Source: a virus. From it: a stretch of DNA of 15,256 nt. The DNA is taken from the UHGV virus genome UHGV-0159580, one strand, 5' to 3'. A program made the position numbers and the translations under genes. Positions 3,272 through 15,240 of the stretch are shown here, in pieces (positions within the stretch are counted from its first letter, which is position 1; every line of letters starts with the position of its first letter). The notes under the pieces were generated by a model that saw nothing but the letters and a program-made list of their open reading frames with translations, did not search any database and was not told where the DNA came from.

Positions 3272-3823
3272 TTATGAGATGATTTTGATGATTGTTAATG
3301 CTAACGCCGTTAAGCACATTGCACTTAACAGAATCTTCCATATTACAGCAGAACGTCTTAGCAATCGCAAGGGCTGTTCTTCTGCATATGCAAGATATTC
3401 GAGTTCAGCAACATTTGACATCACTGTTCTAATGATGCCATTGCCGGTGTAGTTATGTCGAAGTGTTACGACATCAAGCAGATTGTTTTGCACAAGTTGA
3501 TTGAAGACAGGTTCCATGCGTTCATGCATGATGTGCTCAACAATTGCGACTGAGTCAAGCGCTTCAAATTCTGTGCCTTGTATTGTTGCAATGACTTCGG
3601 CAGGGAGCTGCGTATGCACAATGAAGCATCGTTGTTCATTGAACAATGCAAATCCACTGTTCTTCAAAAATGTCAAAAAGTACTCATGTTCAGGGTCATT
3701 CAGATAGTCAAGCAGATATTGATGCCACTTGTTAGCTTCTGCATCAAGCTTGTTTAGACGTCGAATGACACCAAATGGCCATAAAGCCAATTTGGCATTG
3801 TGGAGGATGGTTTTGTAGTTCAT
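3272..3823 (-). CDS. Hypothetical protein with a hydrophobic C-terminal segment (possible membrane anchor)
   Basis: The ORF-track start at 3832 is a TTG; the first in-frame ATG is at 3823..3821 (MNYKTILHNAK...). The C-terminus ...AVIWKILLSAMCLTALALTIIKIIS is hydrophobic. Confidence 0.65.
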   Translation of the reverse strand: MNYKTILHNAKLALWPFGVIRRLNKLDAEANKWHQYLLDYLNDPEHEYFLTFLKNSGFALFNEQRCFIVHTQLPAEVIATIQGTEFEALDSVAIVEHIMHERMEPVFNQLVQNNLLDVVTLRHNYTGNGIIRTVMSNVAELEYLAYAEEQPLRLLRRSAVIWKILLSAMCLTALALTIIKIIS

Positions 3824-3828
3824 ATGTG

Positions 3829-4827
3829 TCAATGTTCAAGATGACATGCGCCATTCTGACAGCCTGTATTGCCATCTGACACGCTTGCAAGATTTGCATT
3901 GCTGCCACTACCAGCAGCTTTGCCAGCATTGCCAGATGAGCCAACAATGCTTATGAGTCTACTGTCAGACATTGCAGAGCCTGCATTAGCTGAACCTGAT
4001 TTGCTTGGCAATGATATTCTGGCTTCATCATAGTTGCCGCCGAAAGTGATGTTCAAGTCAAGTGTAGAATCATCACTGTCAATATCAATGTTGTGCTCGT
4101 AGTCTGTGATGATGTCATCGCCAGCCCATATGTTATCACCAGAATTGATTGCAGGATATTGCAAGTGCAGTGTCAATGGCAGCTTAATGACTGCATCAAT
4201 ATCTTCTTTGCCATGCACAATTGCATGCTGAGCATCCATAGAAGACACATCAAATTCATATGATGCGCCATGCATGGTGCCTGCCCAGACAAAGCCATAC
4301 ATGTTCAACTGATACAGCTTGCTAAGTAAATACTCGTAAGTCTCAAGCGCAGTTAACCAATCTGTTGAAAACACTTGCACATTGATAGCAAAATCTACTG
4401 GTATTCGTCTCATTGTGCTATACAATGCGACAGGCACACTGTCAATTGTGGCAATCAAACGAATCTGTGTATCTTGCATGCCAAGTGCTTGTTTGTTGAT
4501 TCGAGGCGACTCTACTTCAACAACACATCGCGGCACAGTTTGAACAAAGTTCTTTGCGTCAACAAATGCATTTTCAAGTGAATTTGTTGGTGTATTGCCA
4601 ACTGGACTTGAGCCTTTGCCAACAAGTTCACCCGACCAATATCGTTGGTCACCAGTGCTCAGCATGTATGTCGGCATATTCAGACGAGCATATAAATCAG
4701 ACAACAGGCCAATAAATGCATTACGAAAGAAGTGCTGAAATGTCACGTCTTTTGCATTGACTTGCTGTTTGATTGCAGCTTGAGCTGATTTCAGCTCAGC
4801 TGAGCTCCTGTTCAGTGAATCTTTCAT
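3829..4827 (-). CDS. Hypothetical protein with a Gly/Ser/Asn/Ala-rich C-terminal tail
   Basis: 332-aa ORF with ATG start and an ATGA overlap with the upstream gene. The low-complexity tail is SGSANAGSAMSDS...SSGNAGKAAGSGSNANLASVSDGNTG. Confidence 0.75.
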   Translation of the reverse strand: MKDSLNRSSAELKSAQAAIKQQVNAKDVTFQHFFRNAFIGLLSDLYARLNMPTYMLSTGDQRYWSGELVGKGSSPVGNTPTNSLENAFVDAKNFVQTVPRCVVEVESPRINKQALGMQDTQIRLIATIDSVPVALYSTMRRIPVDFAINVQVFSTDWLTALETYEYLLSKLYQLNMYGFVWAGTMHGASYEFDVSSMDAQHAIVHGKEDIDAVIKLPLTLHLQYPAINSGDNIWAGDDIITDYEHNIDIDSDDSTLDLNITFGGNYDEARISLPSKSGSANAGSAMSDSRLISIVGSSGNAGKAAGSGSNANLASVSDGNTGCQNGACHLEH

Positions 4828-6117: not shown

Positions 6118-7713
6118 TCAAAGCTTGAATTTTTGCACTTTTGCATCTACTGGCATCTTTTCAGCGTCATAGATTCGTTTTCGAGCAGCAAAGTGTTGCA
6201 TGTCATAATTGCAGTAGCAATAGCCTTTGCGAAGCTTGACAAGCATATCACTGTGAATTGTAAGCTTATGTGCAATATCAATAATGATTGCTTTCTGCTT
6301 AAGTGGATGCTTACGCAACAGTCGACCAATTGACTGTAATGTTACGTTGTCAGATTTGCCAATCATTAAGAACGCAGCGTAAAACCAAGCATGCACAGAT
6401 ACACCTGTAGACAAAGTACCAGTAGTTGCAATCATGATATGTCTGTCAGGCTCTGCTTCCATCATTGCAAGCATATCTTTGCGTTCATGCAAGGGTACAT
6501 CACCTCTAATGATGTGAACAACCTTGTCAACACCAGACTGCTGTATGAATGTTTGGCAAGCATCATAGATGTTCTGCACATGGTCTCGTCGTTTGCAAAG
6601 TACAAGAGCATTTTTGTCAAGCGAACAAATGATTTTTGCAATGAGCTTGTTAGCATCGACGTAGTTCATGCAATGATGTTGTTCTGCTGGAAGCAGTCTT
6701 GCAGTGTTATCAAACACTTCAGGATGCTCTTCAAGATACTGCACAAATGGCGCATCGTATTCTGCTGAATGCTCAATGACTACTCGTTTGATTTCAAAGT
6801 CAGACACGATGTTCTTTTCGAGTGCTTGAGCTACACCAAATGTACCCAATATTGGCCCAATGTACGATTCAATTGTCAAACGAGCTGCAGTATGTTCAAG
6901 CGGCAATGAACCAGACACACCAAGACGATAATGAGCCTTTGTGCAATGACTGAAGATTTCACGAATTGATGCTGCAGGTGCACCATGAGCTTCATCAGTC
7001 ACAATAAAGTCAAACTGTTCGAAAAAATCTGCTGGCATATTGACAAGACTTTGATATGTGCCGACAACCATATCTGCATCTTGCATTTTGTACTCATTGC
7101 GAACGCCTGAATGGATTTTGTAGAGCTTGTAGTTCTTGTTTGCTAAATCTGACTCATTTTGTTGATAGCTGACAACAATATCGTCAAATGCTTGTGATAC
7201 AAGATGCACCGAGGGTACAATCATAAGCGTTTTGCCATTGATTCTCTTGCTATCTTTTAAGAAGCGACTAATTACATAAACAAGAGCTGTTTTGCCATAA
7301 GACGTCGCAAGGCGCAAACAGCATTTCTTGAATTTGCAAGCAGTCAAAATGAATTTGAGCTGGTCGTCACGCATGTCAAATGGCATGTCAAGACATTCTG
7401 CCCATTGCTCAAGTTCTTCAAGCGATACAATGCGGTCAAAATTGTCAATGAGACCCTCAATCTTGACTTCATATGGAATTGGCTTACGCAATTGTAGGTC
7501 CCAAATACGCTTCCATAAGCCAAATGGCAAGTACACGCCATTAAACACATAGCAAATTTGCCCATTCCAATCTGCTTTGCGACCTTTACGCTTATTGACT
7601 GCTGCTGCAACAAAGTTTGGCACTTCTGCAGTAGCTTCAGCATACAATTGCTTGACTTCCAAATCATTTGCTTCGACAATCTGAAGCAAATCACCTATGA
7701 CTTTGAGTCTCAT
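6118..7713 (-). CDS. Superfamily 2 DNA/RNA helicase (DEAD/DEAH-box type; UvsW-like role possible)
   Basis: Helicase motifs are present in canonical order: Walker A LATSYGKTAL, motif II VTDEAH, motif III GVSGSL, motif V IATTGTLSTGVSV and motif VI QSIGRLLR. An N-terminal domain of about 130 aa is unassigned. Confidence 0.85.
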   Translation of the reverse strand: MRLKVIGDLLQIVEANDLEVKQLYAEATAEVPNFVAAAVNKRKGRKADWNGQICYVFNGVYLPFGLWKRIWDLQLRKPIPYEVKIEGLIDNFDRIVSLEELEQWAECLDMPFDMRDDQLKFILTACKFKKCCLRLATSYGKTALVYVISRFLKDSKRINGKTLMIVPSVHLVSQAFDDIVVSYQQNESDLANKNYKLYKIHSGVRNEYKMQDADMVVGTYQSLVNMPADFFEQFDFIVTDEAHGAPAASIREIFSHCTKAHYRLGVSGSLPLEHTAARLTIESYIGPILGTFGVAQALEKNIVSDFEIKRVVIEHSAEYDAPFVQYLEEHPEVFDNTARLLPAEQHHCMNYVDANKLIAKIICSLDKNALVLCKRRDHVQNIYDACQTFIQQSGVDKVVHIIRGDVPLHERKDMLAMMEAEPDRHIMIATTGTLSTGVSVHAWFYAAFLMIGKSDNVTLQSIGRLLRKHPLKQKAIIIDIAHKLTIHSDMLVKLRKGYCYCNYDMQHFAARKRIYDAEKMPVDAKVQKFKL

Positions 7714-9037: not shown

Positions 9038-10291
9038 TTATCTTGCATGGCCACAGTCATAAACTGCAACATAACCTGCATCAATCATCTCTTGCTCATT
9101 TTGTCCGCAGTCTTCAATATGCTCTTTTGTTTTGAGATGACACCAGTGTTTGCGAATTGTCGACCTGTCATCTGACAGATGTGGCTTAAGTGCGAAGTCA
9201 GTTGAATCTACAGGTTCACCTGCAAGATGCTTTCTAATGACGTCAATGACTTCATTGTCATCCATCCATTCGAATATTGTAATGCAAGTGTAGCCATGCT
9301 TGAGAGCAAGCTGAGTTTTGTCGAAGTGATATTGCGTGCCAGTCGGCCAATTGTCTTTTGATTTGCCAACAATATAAATGTATGACAATGTTGAATTATG
9401 CGTAATTGTTGGATTGACTTCAATCAATAACTTACAACAATCATTGACATAGCTAAGGTCATATGAACGATTTTCAATGTTAACTGCATCAAAATCACAC
9501 GCAATTCCAAGTTCTTGCAATAATTTGTCATGCCACCATTTATTTGCTTTTGATATGACTTTGCCTTGTGCTGTACGACATTTAGTAGTCATACAATGCC
9601 AAGGCACACCATAACGTTGCATACATGTTTCTGATACTTTACTCATATTGCCGCATCCATTGCCGTATCGCTCACGCTTTATTGCAACGCATTTAGCAAT
9701 GTCACCAAACCCATTACCATATCGCTCACGCTTTGTCGCAATTGATTTAGCAATGTTGCCTGGTCCCGCATTGCCATATCGCTCACGCTTTGTCGCATGA
9801 ATTTTGTCAATAGGCCCAATTGCATTGCCATATTTAGCAATCTTTGCAGCAACAGTCTTTTGCATAGTTTCAGCACTGCATACACCATTATCATAGCGTT
9901 CAAGCTTTGTTGCTACTGCTTTCTGCGGATTACCTGAACGTGCGCCATAGCGTGCAATATTTGTTGCTTCACATTTTTCTTTTGGCCCAAATGTGTTGCC
10001 ATACAGTAGCTTCTTTGTGGCTTGCTGACGTTCAAGAGGTCCTTGTGCATAACCATAGCGCTCAATATTTGTTTGCTTACTTTTATCAATGACTGATTGC
10101 ACAAGTCTACAACTTTCTACACCATATTTGCGTAAGCACCCAATTTTTGTGCCATATCGATTCTTAATTTTGCCGTGTACAGTGACATTTCTGCTCAACC
10201 GAATGTTCTCAGTTGTTCTCAACAACTCATCTCGCTCTTGCTCAAGTTCTGCAATTCGTTTCTCAAGAGCTTCACCAGTTAGTGGTGTCAT
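9038..10291 (-). CDS. Repeat-containing protein: N-terminal coiled coil, about 9-10 tandem repeats of about 21 aa with an (K/E)RYG(N) core, and a C-terminal Vsr/DUF559-like PD-(D/E)xK endonuclease-like domain (homing-endonuclease-like)
   Basis: 417-aa ORF with ATG start and an ATGA overlap with the upstream gene. Repeats include IATKRERYGNAGPGNIAKS, IATKRERYGNGFGDIAKCV and AIKRERYGNGCGNM. The C-terminus LLIEVNPTITHNS...HFDKTQLALKHGYTCITIFEW follows the Vsr/DUF559 pattern (IEvDG..H...D..R...L...GW.vlRf). The domain assignment is by motif only. Confidence 0.45.
   Translation of the reverse strand: MTPLTGEALEKRIAELEQERDELLRTTENIRLSRNVTVHGKIKNRYGTKIGCLRKYGVESCRLVQSVIDKSKQTNIERYGYAQGPLERQQATKKLLYGNTFGPKEKCEATNIARYGARSGNPQKAVATKLERYDNGVCSAETMQKTVAAKIAKYGNAIGPIDKIHATKRERYGNAGPGNIAKSIATKRERYGNGFGDIAKCVAIKRERYGNGCGNMSKVSETCMQRYGVPWHCMTTKCRTAQGKVISKANKWWHDKLLQELGIACDFDAVNIENRSYDLSYVNDCCKLLIEVNPTITHNSTLSYIYIVGKSKDNWPTGTQYHFDKTQLALKHGYTCITIFEWMDDNEVIDVIRKHLAGEPVDSTDFALKPHLSDDRSTIRKHWCHLKTKEHIEDCGQNEQEMIDAGYVAVYDCGHAR
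9657..9835. repeat. Tandem direct repeats of about 57-60 bp, at least three well-conserved copies, inside CDS 9038..10291
   Basis: attgccRtatcgctcacgcttt(a/g)t(t/c)gca... recurs at about 9657, 9713 and 9771, with degenerate copies continuing toward 10180. These encode the (K/E)RYG protein repeats. Confidence 0.8.
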
Positions 10292-11049: not shown

Positions 11050-11664
11050 CTAGCGCAATATAGTCCAAGCTTCAATAATTGCTGAAAAATCTTCAAAGGG
11101 CATTGTAGTGTAGCCGGAATCACCCCAAGATACACCCCAGCTATTCTTAATGATGAATGAGTCTTTTGTGTAGCCGACAATTGACACTGCATGCCCACCA
11201 AAATTGCCATCGCCTTTCCAAAAATGCTCAGCATCAATGTCTTTTACGAGCATGCCAACAAAGACAGGCCCATTTGCTACAACAGCAGATTTGATTTCAT
11301 CAATTGTGTAGCAACGTCTGTATGCAGTTATTGGCAATTGCTCTGAGCCCTTTGACATCTTGATTGGCTGTGCTTTGAGCAGCTTAAAGACATCACGTGG
11401 AATCATGCCCTCTTGAGGTGCATTTGAACGACGCTCATACAATGCTTTGATGTCAAGCTTGCCTTGCATAGACAGCACAGAAGACCACCAGTCAATCATT
11501 GTTGCTGCTGTGTAAGCTGCACACATTGATGTACTGCCTTGGTCTTCTACTTGAAGTTGAGCCAACTTGTACACAAGTGGCAAATCTGTTTTTGCGTCAA
11601 AACGCAAGTCTCTGTCATCTTGAGGCGACTGGATGTAGCCCAGTCCATATGTCGTTTGTTTCAT
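11050..11664 (-). CDS. Papain-family (C1) cysteine peptidase, without propeptide or signal peptide
   Basis: All three catalytic-region signatures of C1A peptidases are present with papain-like spacing: VEDQGSTSMCAAYTA (oxyanion Gln six residues before the catalytic Cys, as papain Q19/C25), GGHAVSIVGY (catalytic His; papain DHAVAAVGY) and IKNSWGVSWGDSGY (catalytic Asn; papain IKNSWGTGWGENGY). Confidence 0.85.
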   Translation of the reverse strand: MKQTTYGLGYIQSPQDDRDLRFDAKTDLPLVYKLAQLQVEDQGSTSMCAAYTAATMIDWWSSVLSMQGKLDIKALYERRSNAPQEGMIPRDVFKLLKAQPIKMSKGSEQLPITAYRRCYTIDEIKSAVVANGPVFVGMLVKDIDAEHFWKGDGNFGGHAVSIVGYTKDSFIIKNSWGVSWGDSGYTTMPFEDFSAIIEAWTILR

Positions 11665-11679
11665 ATCAGATAATGTATC

Positions 11680-11976
11680 TCATTGTTCATGCCAGTGTCC
11701 TGTCAAGTCAAACATTGCTTCACGTTGTGCCTTTGTGCATTTTGCAATGTCGTCAATAATCCAACACGGAGTGCTTCCCCAGTTGCAATATCGAATATAG
11801 CCTAATTGCTCAAGTTCTGCAATTGGGTCATATGCAAGACTAACTGGCATATTGTACGCGTCAAACAGCTCTGGTTTGAGCTTTTGCAACAAAGTGTCAG
11901 CAGTTTTGCTATGTTCAGCAAAGCCGCAATATGTGACTTGGCCTGATGGGCTTAACCAGCAAGATTGCATTGTCAT
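11680..11976 (-). CDS. Hypothetical small protein
   Basis: 98-aa ORF with ATG start and an ATGA overlap with the upstream lipoprotein-like gene. Confidence 0.6.
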   Translation of the reverse strand: MTMQSCWLSPSGQVTYCGFAEHSKTADTLLQKLKPELFDAYNMPVSLAYDPIAELEQLGYIRYCNWGSTPCWIIDDIAKCTKAQREAMFDLTGHWHEQ

Positions 11977-12335
11977 TCATTTGGTTGAGGCTCAATTCGC
12001 ATCACTACACGCACAGAATCTCTATAAGGATAAACTGACGCAACAATCAAATACCAACGTTTGTCGTCAACTTCGCCATTTGACTTGATGTATGGCGCAG
12101 AAGTAGCAATATATCGAGCATGTTTGAATGTCGTATCTACTCTTGCAACAAGACAGGTAGAATCAGTCGCTTGAGCATGCCACACATCAATTTCAGGCAA
12201 ATGTGTATTGTGTGCGTTGCATACACTGTCAACAAATTCTCGTGGTTGCAAAGTGACAGTCGACACATATGTTGGTTTAACTGCAGCACATGCAATACAT
12301 GCAATTGCAATGAACAACAATGTAAATCGTTTCAT
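11973..12335 (-). CDS. Putative secreted protein or lipoprotein (N-terminal signal peptide with Cys-containing lipobox-like segment)
   Basis: MKRFTLLFIAIACIACAAV has a positively charged N-terminus, a hydrophobic core and IAC/IAC cysteines at positions 13 and 16. 120 aa, ATG start. Confidence 0.65.
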   Translation of the reverse strand: MKRFTLLFIAIACIACAAVKPTYVSTVTLQPREFVDSVCNAHNTHLPEIDVWHAQATDSTCLVARVDTTFKHARYIATSAPYIKSNGEVDDKRWYLIVASVYPYRDSVRVVMRIEPQPNE

Positions 12336-12339
12336 ATTC

Positions 12340-12600
12340 TTAGACGTTTTGTAGTTCTACAATATCATATCGCTTATGCAATTCAGACCAGTCACGAACG
12401 TAGCCTGTCATAAAGACGTGCAACATGTATGGTTTGTTGTCAGCATACTTGACTGCGCCTGCAGCATCTTTGATTTGCTTGGCTGTTAGCCAAACTTCTG
12501 CATTGTTGTTTGCATATACACAACGATACACCGGTTCTGATAATTCAGTCACTGTGATTTTCTTGCCATTGCGAAGTATGCATCGTACTTGTTTGTCCAT
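12340..12600 (-). CDS. Hypothetical small protein, paralog of CDS 12924..13208
   Basis: The ORF-track start at 12609 is TTG; the first ATG is at 12600 (MDKQVRCILRNGKKITVTELSEPVYRC...HVFMTGYVRDWSELHKRY). It aligns with the 12924..13208 product (NG..I.ITEL..PV..C...LHV...GYVR.W.EL). Confidence 0.65.
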   Translation of the reverse strand: MDKQVRCILRNGKKITVTELSEPVYRCVYANNNAEVWLTAKQIKDAAGAVKYADNKPYMLHVFMTGYVRDWSELHKRYDIVELQNV

Positions 12601-12630
12601 TGCTTGCAATTTATGATATTGTTAAGATAT

Positions 12631-12927
12631 CTACAAAAAGCAATGCACCATAAAACCCAAGAACATAATTATTGCAGGCTGCATGATGCAATACATAAAG
12701 AACTGTGCAGCAATTGGCAATTCACTGAACTTGTTGACTGTGTCATGATTCTTGAACAATGCCAGTACAAATGATATCCCAATTGCATGCTTAAGTGATA
12801 ACGCAGTCAATGCGGGCCACACGGGCATTACAAACCACTCCCAGAAGTTCATAATAATGCAGCCATTCAGAATGTAGCCTAACAGCATGAACACAATGCA
12901 TGCAACAGTTATCAGAAAGTTTTTCAT
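12631..12927 (-). CDS. Small integral membrane protein (about 3 predicted TM helices)
   Basis: 98 aa with ATG start. Three hydrophobic stretches: FLITVACIVFMLLGYILNGCIIM, VWPALTALSLKHAIGISFVLALF and FFMYCIMQPAIIMFLGFMVHCFL. ATGA overlap with the upstream paralog gene. Confidence 0.7.
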   Translation of the reverse strand: MKNFLITVACIVFMLLGYILNGCIIMNFWEWFVMPVWPALTALSLKHAIGISFVLALFKNHDTVNKFSELPIAAQFFMYCIMQPAIIMFLGFMVHCFL

Positions 12928-13208
12928 ATACGCTCAAGTTTTATGATGTCAGTTCTTAATGATTTGTATGCGGCAAATAATTCAGTCCAGCCTCGTACAT
13001 AACCAACGCCAATTACATGCAATGCATGCGCATCTGGTTTTGCATGACAATGTCTTGCATGAGGCTGCTGTTCAAGTTCTGCTTGTGTAAGATAGGCCTT
13101 TGATGAGTCATCATGCACAAAACATGGAAATACTGGCTGTGCAAGTTCTGTTATGTCAATGTCTTGACCATTAGATAGCTTTGCAAGATATAATGTATTG
13201 GCTTGCAT
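12924..13208 (-). CDS. Hypothetical small protein, paralog of CDS 12340..12600
   Basis: 94 aa with ATG start (MQANTLYLAKLSNGQDIDITELAQPVFPC...HVIGVGYVRGWTELFAAYK). Shares conserved blocks with the 12340..12600 product. Confidence 0.65.
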   Translation of the reverse strand: MQANTLYLAKLSNGQDIDITELAQPVFPCFVHDDSSKAYLTQAELEQQPHARHCHAKPDAHALHVIGVGYVRGWTELFAAYKSLRTDIIKLERI

Positions 13209-13345
13209 GTTACATTGAGATGTTAAGAATTCGCTTGACTACAGAATCGATATCATTGTTTGCTACATTGCACAGTTCCATGCGAACATTAGAATCAATG
13301 AACAAGTCATGAAACGTTGACGCAGCTTGAACAACTTATTTGAGC

Positions 13346-14522: not shown

Positions 14523-14621
14523 TATTAAAATATATTGATATATGATAATTGTACTACAAAAATCCCAAATTTGCACACTTTGATAATCAAAAGTGCAAAC
14601 AAAATTCAAAGTTATATTGTA

Positions 14622-14653
14622 CATCATAAAGTGCAAATTTGCACTTTATGATG
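14622..14653. promoter_or_regulatory. Perfect 32-bp palindrome (candidate operator for a dimeric DNA-binding protein, or hairpin)
   Basis: catcataaagtgcaaatttgcactttatgatg is its own reverse complement; the core is GTGCA-N4-TGCAC. Related half-sites occur at 14568 (TTTGCACAC) and 14591 (AAAGTGCAAA) in the same gap. Confidence 0.55.
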
Positions 14654-14667
14654 CTGCAAAATGTCTG

Positions 14668-14700
14668 CATAAAATAAGCAGCTTAGCAATCTAAGCTGCT
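14668..14700 (-). terminator. Rho-independent terminator candidate downstream of minus-strand CDS 14725..15240
   Basis: Perfect 10-bp stem agcagcttag/ctaagctgct with a 4-nt loop at 14677..14700, followed on the minus strand by UAUUUUAUG (plus 14668..14676). Confidence 0.55.
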
Positions 14701-14724: not shown

Positions 14725-15240
14725 TCATTTGTAGTGTTCAGTTATGTATGCAGAGCATAGCAATACAACTGATATGCAAATGACAATGTATGTTGGCGTA
14801 ATCAGTGTTACATTGAATAACAATGCAGTCAATGCGCATACTGTTACTGATATGAGTGTTGAAATGAATGCAGCATATGCACTAAATTTGCTTTTGAACA
14901 AACGTTCAATGACATATGTTGTCGCAACAGACAGTAAGACTACATATGCAAATAACAACAGCCAAGTTGAGTTTGACGTTGTTGGCTCTTCAATAAACTG
15001 CAATGTTGCTGATGGCACTTCAATGTTATTTGATGCTTGCAAAGTGCCGCTTACTGCATCTGCATACATCACAGTTAAGTAGTGTCGTTGAATTTCTGCT
15101 GCGTCTACTTTATAGATTCTATGCCATGCAACATCTGATATGATGTATGTTGCAGCCATAAATACAGCAATGCATAGCATATAAGAGCCAAACTTTGCAA
15201 TCGGTTTCATGCAAATATATTTTTGTTTGTATATGTACAT
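14725..15240 (-). CDS. Integral membrane protein (about 4 predicted TM helices), function unknown
   Basis: 171-aa ORF from ATG at 15240; an alternative ATG at 15210 gives MKPIAKFGSYMLCIAVFMAATYII... Hydrophobic segments include LCIAVFMAATYIISDVAW, WLLLFAYVVLLSVATTYVI, AAFISTLISVTVCALTALLF and IVICISVVLLCSAYI. Confidence 0.7.
   Translation of the reverse strand: MYIYKQKYICMKPIAKFGSYMLCIAVFMAATYIISDVAWHRIYKVDAAEIQRHYLTVMYADAVSGTLQASNNIEVPSATLQFIEEPTTSNSTWLLLFAYVVLLSVATTYVIERLFKSKFSAYAAFISTLISVTVCALTALLFNVTLITPTYIVICISVVLLCSAYITEHYK

Follow-up and report, generated by a model that had tools for sequence, protein, structure and literature searches.

Four small genes lie side by side on the minus strand of a 15,256-nt stretch of viral DNA (UHGV virus genome UHGV-0159580; this whole stretch is hereafter called the window). 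Two of them are paralogs that flank a membrane protein, and a lipoprotein follows, an arrangement that raises the question of whether the four products form a single membrane-associated machine or belong to separate units that happen to adjoin. The original prediction, made by reading the sequence, had favored a translationally coupled unit without recognizable family signatures, with superinfection exclusion, anti-defense or lysis (a holin-like membrane protein plus an o-spanin-like lipoprotein) as candidate roles.

Four genuine genes in a probable early operon

All four predicted open reading frames were recovered on the minus strand: paralog A (12924..13208; 94 aa, soluble), the small membrane protein TM (12631..12927; 98 aa), paralog B (12340..12600; 86 aa counted from its ATG, soluble) and the lipoprotein (11973..12335; 120 aa, with signal peptide and lipobox). 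An alternative in-frame TTG start is possible for B at 12609. Compared with three close relatives, dN/dS ranges from 0.03 to 0.57 across the four, which are genuine protein-coding genes under purifying selection. The proposed translational coupling is seen at the junction of A and TM, where the start of TM overlaps the stop of A (ATGA), and does not extend to the others, as gaps of 30 nt and 4 nt separate TM from B and B from the lipoprotein gene. Since ATGA-type overlaps are common in the window (an overlap of 4 or 8 nt is present at 6 of 21 gene junctions), and since the lipoprotein gene itself overlaps the downstream gene at 11680..11976 in the same way, coupling does not delimit a four-gene unit.

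By megablast, the region matched none of 50,697 phage records, and word-indexed protein searches with A/B, TM and the lipoprotein returned close relatives only. The claimed absence of family signatures held for Pfam, NCBIfam and PADLOC; TM and the lipoprotein matched nothing there (Pfam at E<=1), the known exclusion families of T4 Imm and Sp included. It did not hold for PHROGs, where TM matches phrog_2169 over its full length (E=1.2e-6, 29.4 bits; residues 8-98 align with positions 15-103 of the 103-position profile). This family is annotated as 'membrane protein' in the category 'moron, auxiliary metabolic gene and host takeover', and is itself without known function.

The only large upstream intergenic gap (14607..14700, minus strand) contains a terminator-like hairpin at 14700..14677 followed by a TAACTTTG motif at 14614..14607, and is the probable start of a long co-directional operon holding all of these genes together with those for SSB, a helicase, thioredoxin and dCMP deaminase. 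No terminator-like site was found on the minus strand from 13600 to 10900, sigma-70 promoter and TAnnTTTG counts were at chance level overall, and no Shine-Dalgarno sequences were detected. The closest homologues of a peptidase encoded just downstream are from Prevotella Lak phages, and the relatives of the helicase include Chryseobacterium and Tenacibaculum phages. The source is probably a T4-like phage of ~175 kb, with a long early or replication-region operon, that infects Prevotella or another member of the Bacteroidota.

A and B belong to an unannotated family of small phage proteins

The paralogy of A and B was borne out far beyond chance, with 34% identity over 85 residues (BLASTP, E=1e-17). 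B is equidistant from all members of the family, at 27-34% identity to each of them, A included, so the duplication is old and not a recent or isolate-specific event; we read A and B as true, deep paralogs that diverged anciently. An HMMER search over 1.84e9 representatives gathered about ten distant clusters, each of roughly 90 aa, that have in common the motif L-x-N/D-G-x5-7-L-x2-P-V/I-Y/F-x-C ... G-Y-x3-5-L/I-F ... I-V/I-x-L. A and B align over their full length with 11 other members, and L11, G14, L22, G69 and L91 are invariant. The A subfamily carries its own His/Cys cluster, RHCH..PD.H.LH, and the RHCH motif is retained in the A orthologue of a divergent relative (P0007 in L009, 57% identity). 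B is confined to the close clade of the window, where its dN/dS against close relatives is 0.03-0.13.

Searches beyond the family found little. Pfam and PHROG searches with A/B had no match, the A/B profile met nothing credible among PDB sequences, tblastn with a central family member gave zero matches, and an IMG/VR scan with a trimmed alignment of the distant members (A4) had no confirmed match. AlphaFold modeling, a check that the original prediction had proposed, gave a confident AF2 model for A (pLDDT 84, pTM 0.70) that matches nothing in PDB or BFVD. The proteins are uncharacterized, and A and B define an unannotated family of soluble phage proteins that are rich in beta structure and ~90 aa long. 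Matches of the A/B profile to the giant proteins P0008, P0009, P0016 and P0018 had hinted at kinship with MBG_2 surface-protein repeats but proved to be an artefact, made up of ~5-bit matches summed over near-identical repeats.

The distant members occur singly among soluble neighbors in five contexts (L005/6, L010, L012, L020 and L021), in none of which a membrane protein is a neighbor. As the family is single-copy and without a membrane partner in these other phages, A and B are likely to act singly.

Gene order around A and B varies among close relatives

Conservation of the four-gene order in related phages had been proposed as a check. Within the window's own lineage, sampled by five or six genomes in a comparison that rests on the short divergent contigs L009 (2.5 kb) and L011 (2.6 kb), the order is not conserved, an outcome that the original prediction had itself named as counting against it. 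A-TM-B-lipoprotein is found in the window, L001, L002 and L017. L009 has A-TM-lipoprotein without B; there, the lipoprotein gene directly follows the leader that in the window stands before B. L011 has neither A, TM nor B and reads 336-aa gene, lipoprotein, 101-aa gene, peptidase. Depending on the relative, the same flanking genes enclose A-TM-B, A-TM or the unrelated 336-aa gene.

Immediately upstream of A, at 13209..13345 (minus strand), lies a deletion scar, the remnant of a gene of 282-307 aa that is intact in L001 (5064..5987, 307 aa) and L009 (714..1562, 282 aa), is reduced to end fragments in the window and L002, and has left not even those in L017. We take this scar to mark the stretch as a plasticity region. 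In one natural variant (L002), A is interrupted by an in-frame TAG with TM, B and the lipoprotein intact. Recoding of TAG to Gln was considered for this allele and rejected, because the codon is the sole in-frame stop among 13 compared genes; it is also disfavored by TAG terminating the TM, peptidase and SSB genes of the window.

TM occurs only in the window clade and L009. Its hydropathy shows two strong hydrophobic segments (~4-26 and ~72-98) and a moderate one (~39-58) that includes K46 and H47; three transmembrane segments, as originally proposed, are plausible, and two to three is the safe statement. Its profile met nothing credible among PDB sequences, and tblastn with TM in sequenced phages gave marginal matches only. 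The ATGA overlap with A is kept in every genome that carries A, including L009, where identity is 57%. A and TM may conceivably form a functional pair.

The lipoprotein is paired with a papain-family peptidase

The lipoprotein has a different partner. At 11050..11664 (minus strand) lies a gene for a 204-aa protein without signal peptide or propeptide that matches Pfam PF00112 (E=8e-11; 42.9 bits, with the cutoff at 20.7) and phrog_16701 (E=6.7e-20), and whose profile finds a xylellain-like protease, papain and cathepsins in the PDB. Cys48, His158 and Asn174 are invariant (alignment A8). With a score above the gathering threshold and a Cys/His/Asn triad, we assign this predicted product to peptidase family C1A. 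Across the peptidase set (80 records), a hydrophobic N-terminus is absent from all 75 proteins whose full N-terminus was called.

A lipoprotein gene of ~110-125 aa directly adjoins the peptidase gene in 40 of 78 other IMG/VR loci, as counted by BLAST clustering of loci outside the window clade that are not phylogenetically independent of one another. Two lipoprotein clusters always occupy position -1 of the peptidase (31/31 and 9/9), and the 40 pairs fall into 15 groups (>=60% identity) in at least five different flanking contexts. A strict lipobox filter retained 22 of 80 loci, whereas only 4 of 525 background ORFs passed it (Fisher p=3e-17). The two genes are on the same strand in 32 of the 40 pairs, in 29 of which the stop and start overlap or lie within 13 nt of each other; the other 8 pairs have their genes on opposite strands. 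The same arrangement is present in the GenBank phages MT121960 and MT836733. None of the 78 loci contains A/B, TM or the 98-aa gene described below, and no Pfam or PHROGs family covers this widespread lipoprotein.

The predicted signal peptide and lipobox of the window lipoprotein were confirmed: its N-terminus reads MKRFTLLFIAIACIAC followed by AAV, with a CIAC lipobox whose C13 and C16 do not vary across four orthologues, the most distant of them at 65% identity. The protein is strongly constrained (dN/dS 0.08-0.11). Its AF2 model (pLDDT 46.7) is too poor for a fold search and predicts beta strands at low confidence. With the peptidase-adjacent lipoproteins it has in common the motif (F/V)DS(M/V)C.A..LP..L..W; comparison with that family gave 9.0 bits by HMM and E=7e-4 with a probability of 26% by hhalign (profiles of 17-21 sequences), and pairwise BLASTP/hhalign against the single L023 and L024 lipoproteins was not significant. 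We consider it a probable remote member of the family, on a homology that is statistically weak and leans on position, size and motif. The window lipoprotein and peptidase are retained together in L011, and we assign the lipoprotein, on linkage, to a recurrent and previously undescribed gene pair with the signal-less peptidase.

In the window clade, a gene for a 98-aa soluble protein (11680..11976, minus strand) sits between the lipoprotein and peptidase genes. It is conserved in L011 (101 aa there) and frameshifted in L002/L016 and L018; with frameshifts in two relatives, it appears dispensable.

Separate units and their possible functions

The distant A/B members have no membrane neighbor, and 0 of the 78 other peptidase loci carry A/B or TM; the proposed four-gene unit is therefore not supported. 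On balance, we lean towards four juxtaposed genes from separate units and not a four-part machine, in which A-TM and B would be swappable cargo of a plasticity hotspot and the lipoprotein would be paired with the peptidase. A and B would each bind host targets in the cytoplasm, serving host takeover or anti-defense. The lipoprotein and the peptidase would act on the host envelope, with the lipoprotein pre-positioned in the periplasm or outer membrane and the peptidase accumulating in the cytoplasm, to reach its target once the inner membrane is breached at lysis; an envelope-directed function of the pair at or before lysis is our best guess. We infer every biochemical role given here; the genes, their paralogy, the variable synteny and the lipoprotein-peptidase linkage are observed.

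Could the locus instead be a lysis cassette, with TM as the holin, the lipoprotein as an outer-membrane, spanin-like protein and the papain-like peptidase as the endolysin-type enzyme? As in phage lysis cassettes, a hydrolase gene, signal-less as in canonical endolysins, lies beside that of a predicted exported lipoprotein, with a small multi-TM protein near. Elsewhere, in Thermoanaerobacterium phage THSA-485A, an annotated GH25 lysozyme gene is immediately followed by that of the C1A peptidase; in L056 and L098 the peptidase comes right after a multi-TM protein, and at several loci after a signal-anchored protein of 250-270 aa with a GH73-like motif, an identity that was seen by eye, was unconfirmed by PDB and phage searches and is given no weight here. 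TM is small and has TM segments, as holins do, but its C-terminus, ...IIMFLGFMVHCFL, falls inside the last hydrophobic segment and has no hydrophilic, highly charged tail. Holin-type linkage to the lytic enzyme gene is also lacking: TM is missing from L011 and from the 78 other peptidase loci, so it is no obligatory partner of the pair. As for spanins, the lipoprotein has the lipobox Cys, but there is no i-spanin candidate, as the flanking B (max KD19 0.18) and 98-aa protein (0.51) have no TMD and TM has no periplasmic domain. Nor is the lipoprotein a u-spanin: its mature part of ~105 aa is predicted to be beta-rich, has 7% Pro and ends in a hydrophilic C-terminus (...DSVRVVMRIEPQPNE) without a TMD. 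The genomic context also differs from that of a lysis cassette, being one of replication and nucleotide metabolism in the window operon, and at other loci the genes beside the pair resemble, on inspection by eye, anaerobic RNR, baseplate and helicase/dUTPase genes, none of them lytic in appearance. The original holin and o-spanin reading fails on these defining features. We judge a lysis cassette unlikely; a lysis-related role for the lipoprotein and the neighboring peptidase, which lies outside the stretch that the original prediction covered, is conceivable.

A little less probable, to our minds, is a protease with a dedicated inhibitor, in which the lipoprotein, as a small beta-barrel protein, would inhibit or chaperone the peptidase next to it. 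The analogy is with the C10 proteases (Bfp) of B. fragilis, whose genes are contiguous and co-transcribed with staphostatin-like Bfi genes, two of which (Bfi1B and Bfi4) encode predicted lipoproteins (PMC2873492). In the Bfp/Bfi and staphopain/staphostatin systems, as here, the gene of a papain-fold cysteine protease adjoins a short one (~110-130 aa) that often encodes a lipoprotein signal, and Bfp/Bfi is likewise from Bacteroidota, including mobile elements, and co-transcribed. The tight, recurrent adjacency of our pair fits such a relationship, as do a mature size of ~95-105 aa and the beta strands of the low-confidence model. However, the protease here belongs to C1A and not to C10 or C47, and the compartments do not match: unlike the Bfp/Bfi partners, which are both exported, a peptidase without signal peptide and propeptide would meet its exported lipoprotein only after a breach of the membrane. 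The lipoprotein has no detectable sequence similarity to Bfi or staphostatin; its profiles (A5 and A9) match no PDB chain, the solved inhibitors staphostatin and chagasin included, and Pfam assigned it to no family, inhibitor families included.

Superinfection exclusion or receptor masking, with early TM and/or lipoprotein altering the envelope to block DNA entry or adsorption of other phages, much as T4 Imm/Sp or T5 Llp do, and A/B unrelated to it, seems to us improbable. Those proteins are, as here, small early membrane or exported (lipo)proteins encoded among the accessory genes of large lytic phages, and the analogy draws on the early-type operon in a T4-like replication region, on a small membrane protein beside a predicted exported lipoprotein, on the presence/absence polymorphism of A-TM-B in close relatives, which is typical of accessory genes under conflict, and on the moron/host-takeover category of phrog_2169. 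Against it, no sequence relation to T4 Imm/Sp or T5 Llp was detected and Pfam yielded no match to the families of known exclusion proteins; the lipoprotein is constrained and not fast-evolving, and it is tied to a peptidase and not to a receptor-binding protein gene, a linkage across unrelated genome contexts that receptor masking leaves unexplained.

Least probable of all, and very doubtful in our view, is a real module, with A and B as cytoplasmic subunits bound to either face or end of TM in a membrane complex that works with the lipoprotein: the A/TM overlap is kept in all A-bearing genomes and A and B both have TEL and GYVR-x-W-x-EL, derived features absent from distant members, but B is missing from L009 and A, TM and B from L011, family members elsewhere lack a TM neighbor, a nonsense allele of A coexists with the other three genes intact, and ATGA overlaps are generic in this genome.

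We return to separate units, and to what they would mean. A machine built from these four genes would have been architecturally new; the evidence points instead to chance neighbors within a plasticity region, which do not merit further effort as a unit. The family of A and B is confidently modeled and stands, so far, without annotation or fold match. Anti-defense and host-takeover proteins typically come from such unannotated families of small proteins, and A/B may possibly have been duplicated here as effectors of either kind. To our knowledge, spanins are rarely recognized in Bacteroidota hosts, and we know of no C1A peptidase that serves as a cell-wall or lysis enzyme; the pair could represent an unconventional step at the outer membrane or in lysis, or else a peptidase for which the lipoprotein acts as a 'safety catch'. 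The further view that the two-gene lipoprotein/C1A unit is mobile and a new envelope-acting system, carried by many gut and environmental, probably Bacteroidota, phages, and that A/B form a new early-gene fold family is one that we hold tentatively, as a possibility short of an expectation. Phage lysis and envelope manipulation in Bacteroidota, including Prevotella and Lak-related phages, are poorly understood, and the pairing of a lipoprotein with a papain-like peptidase offers a concrete, testable candidate for work on how Bacteroidota phages deal with the envelope and lysis.

Gene layout and genomic setting

All substantial ORFs of the 15.3-kb window are encoded on the minus strand and tightly packed. 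The region is of early or replication type, and elsewhere it encodes a dCMP deaminase, a thioredoxin-domain protein, a gp32-like SSB and a helicase, with 'RNA-DNA + DNA-DNA helicase' among the annotations of its phage homologues. No Shine-Dalgarno sequence was found at any window gene; the nearest phage homologues of the window's papain-family peptidase (11050..11664, minus strand) belong to Prevotella Lak phages, relatives of the helicase include Chryseobacterium and Tenacibaculum phages, and loci near-identical to the window occur on ~175-kb IMG/VR contigs. Taken with the gene content, these features point to a large T4-like phage of a probable Bacteroidota host as the source. GATC occurs once in the window (expected ~39 under a second-order Markov model, 56 from base composition), as does CTAG (16.5 and 56, respectively), a scarcity that suggests restriction avoidance; TGCA, with 285 occurrences against 56 expected by base composition, is in ~5-fold excess. 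A 417-aa ORF (9038..10291), in which '..RYGN..' motifs recur, matches DUF7487 and a homing-endonuclease PHROG (phrog_3339, 8.8e-6) and shows 56–60% identity to its counterparts in relatives, against 96–100% for the flanking genes; it is likely a mobile endonuclease, and a similar repeat protein (cluster c30) lies near the peptidase at other loci.

The original prediction described four small genes as one compact, translationally coupled module: A (12924..13208, 94 aa), a membrane protein, TM (12631..12927, 98 aa), B (12340..12600, 86 aa) and a lipoprotein-like protein (11973..12335, 120 aa). The four ORFs are present, all on the minus strand, and dN/dS values of 0.03–0.57 against three close relatives identify them as real genes. 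The paralogy of A and B is borne out by BLASTP (34% identity, E=1e-17). Coupling holds at the A/TM junction, the only ATGA overlap within the set, whereas gaps of 30 nt and 4 nt separate TM from B and B from the lipoprotein gene; the latter overlaps a downstream 98-aa gene (11680..11976) by ATGA. Since such overlaps occur at 6 of the 21 window junctions, they do not delimit a four-gene unit. A terminator-like hairpin (14700..14677), followed by TAACTTTG, lies inside the sole long gap upstream, and from 13600 to 10900 the minus strand has no terminator-like site; these two features suggest that the four genes sit in one long operon.

Of the three transmembrane segments proposed for TM, two are strongly hydrophobic and the third only moderately so. 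The expected lack of family signatures is confirmed for TM in Pfam, NCBIfam and PADLOC, but in PHROGs the protein has a full-length match (E=1.2e-6) to phrog_2169, a 'membrane protein' family of unknown function. TM is limited to the window clade and L009, a more distant related locus; in the close relative L001, a 19-nt tandem duplication (GGTGCATTGCTTTTTGTAGA) at ~6560..6600, the 3′ end of the gene, doubles the stop region. Two further predicted membrane proteins, both lacking a family match, lie at 14725..15240 (171 aa, several hydrophobic segments) and 3272..3832 (186 aa, max KD19 2.38), so membrane proteins are not peculiar to the four-gene region.

A plasticity hotspot

The order A–TM–B–lipoprotein is common to the window, L001, L002 and L017, but these four genomes are at least 91% identical, so the shared order tells little. 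It is broken in L009, where a 96-aa gene, a 282-aa gene, A (57% identical to window A), TM (ATGA-overlapping) and the lipoprotein gene follow one another; B is absent, and the leader found before B in the window sits directly before the lipoprotein start codon. In L011 a 336-aa gene, the lipoprotein gene (65% identity to that of the window), a 101-aa gene and the peptidase gene are present without A, TM or B. Directly upstream of A, the window carries a deletion scar (13209..13345), the remnant of a 282–307-aa gene that is intact between the 96-aa gene and A in L001 (5064..5987) and L009 (714..1562); in the window and L002 all that survives of it is ~8 codons at the start and ~25 at the end, and in L017 nothing. 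Gene A of L002 (IMGVR_UViG_3300045988_152288, 4232..4234) has TAG in place of the CAG (Gln24) found in all others, the sole in-frame stop among the 13 genes compared. Recoding was rejected, as TAG does terminate genes in the window; the codon is a nonsense allele or a sequencing error.

The variable order, the scar and the nonsense codon together identify a plasticity hotspot, in which A–TM and B make up the exchangeable cargo and lipoprotein–98-aa gene–peptidase is the stable part. The 98-aa gene is itself probably dispensable, being frameshifted in L002 (5398..5670) and L018 (111..379) and absent from all other lipoprotein–peptidase loci. The original observation was thus correct, but comparative genomics does not support its reading as a four-gene module: the separable units are A–TM, B and lipoprotein–(98 aa)–peptidase.

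A lipoprotein–peptidase gene pair

The lipoprotein has the predicted signal peptide and lipobox (MKRFTLLFIAIACIAC/AAV at the N-terminus), and its CIAC motif is unchanged in orthologues down to 65% identity. By its sequence the peptidase is a genuine member of family C1A: it scores 42.9 bits against Pfam PF00112 (cutoff 20.7), conserves Cys48, His158 and Asn174, and its profile finds papain, cathepsins and xylellain among PDB entries. An IMG/VR scan with the peptidase alignment yielded 80 loci, 78 of them outside the window clade. A strict lipobox ORF ends within 500 nt upstream at 22 of the 80, against a background of 4/525 other ORFs (Fisher p=3e-17). On BLAST clustering, both lipoprotein clusters always occupy position −1 to the peptidase (31/31 and 9/9), and a clustered lipoprotein stands beside it at 40 of the 78 loci, representing 15 groups at ≥60% identity. 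Flanking contexts, judged by eye, comprise anaerobic RNR and baseplate genes, a ~640-aa gene, or helicase and dUTPase; PHROGs confirmed only the baseplate-wedge gene. At eight loci (L035, L066, L071, L072, L078, L087, L089, L091) the lipoprotein gene lies on the opposite strand; these are large contigs (148–283 kb) with the two ORFs 32–42 nt apart and all remaining neighbours on the lipoprotein's strand. Two GenBank phages that are unrelated, MT121960 and MT836733, each encode a peptidase homologue (36–41% identity) whose start is overlapped by a lipoprotein ORF of ~100 aa. The lipoprotein therefore belongs with the peptidase, in a widespread and conserved linkage; A/B, TM and the 98-aa gene were found at none of the loci outside the window clade.

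The window lipoprotein shares with the pair lipoproteins its size, a same-position motif, (F/V)DS(M/V)C-x-A-..-LP-..-L-..-W, and a C-terminal D(S/T)x..(K/R) motif; weak statistical support comes from an HMM built without it (9.0 bits) and from hhalign (E=7e-4, probability 26%). The family has no match in Pfam, PHROG or the PDB, and the AF2 model of the window protein is unusable (pLDDT 47). Lak-type megaphages (L022, Prevotella phage Lak-B5 412315..412944; L099, L102–L105) carry the same peptidase and no lipoprotein; the peptidase gene immediately follows that of the portal (phrog_213, 2.3e-56). Under code 11 it is broken by in-frame TAG codons, and it reads through only with TAG as Gln, which fits the recoding known for Lak phages.

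No signal peptide or propeptide was seen in the 80 peptidase records. We infer that the cell envelope is where the pair acts: the lipoprotein, once exported, would be in place in the periplasm or outer membrane, and the peptidase, being cytoplasmic, would gain access to it, or to its own substrate, only on inner-membrane permeabilisation. This topology matches the logic of an endolysin with an outer-membrane factor. The case for lysis proper is thin; an annotated GH25 lysozyme lies beside the peptidase in one phage and multi-TM proteins neighbour it at two loci, but canonical holin and spanin features are lacking, which also counts against the proposed cassette of a holin-like TM and an o-spanin-like lipoprotein. 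Holins carry a charged C-terminal tail, and TM has none. A protease/inhibitor pair fits the topology less well, since such partners normally share one compartment and here the lipoprotein is exported and the peptidase cytoplasmic. The closest published architecture is of this kind, the Bacteroides Bfi/Bfp systems, in which inhibitors with lipoprotein signals are co-transcribed with papain-fold proteases (PMC2873492); no homology to them was found. TM and/or the lipoprotein might act in superinfection exclusion, but this leaves the peptidase linkage unexplained.

The A/B family

Searching 1.84 billion representative proteins with a profile gave about ten distant clusters of relatives ~90 aa long, a few with additional N- or C-terminal extensions, that share the motif L-x-NG-...-L-x2-PVY-x-C ... 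GY ... LF ... IVKL; no member matches Pfam or PHROGs. Apparent matches to giant MBG_2-repeat proteins were rejected as additive artefacts. B has 27–34% identity to A and to each of the other members, which makes the duplication an old one; TEL and W-x-EL features occur in A and B and in no other member. In five distant readable contexts (L005/6, L010, L012, L020, L021) the gene is single-copy with soluble protein neighbours. A residues 50–64 and the L009 orthologue (P0007) conserve a His/Cys cluster, A-R-H-C-H-x2-P-D-x-H-x-L-H, missing from B and all distant members, which may be a metal site. A and B are plausibly independent cytoplasmic early proteins of the host-target-binding kind, with no mechanistic tie to TM beyond generic gene overlap.

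In kind, the four-gene region is ordinary, a set of accessory genes within a plastic stretch of a phage genome. The leads it provides are A/B, an unannotated small-protein family whose confidently predicted model has so far no fold match, and the lipoprotein/C1A-peptidase gene pair, itself undescribed, which is common in probable Bacteroidota phages.
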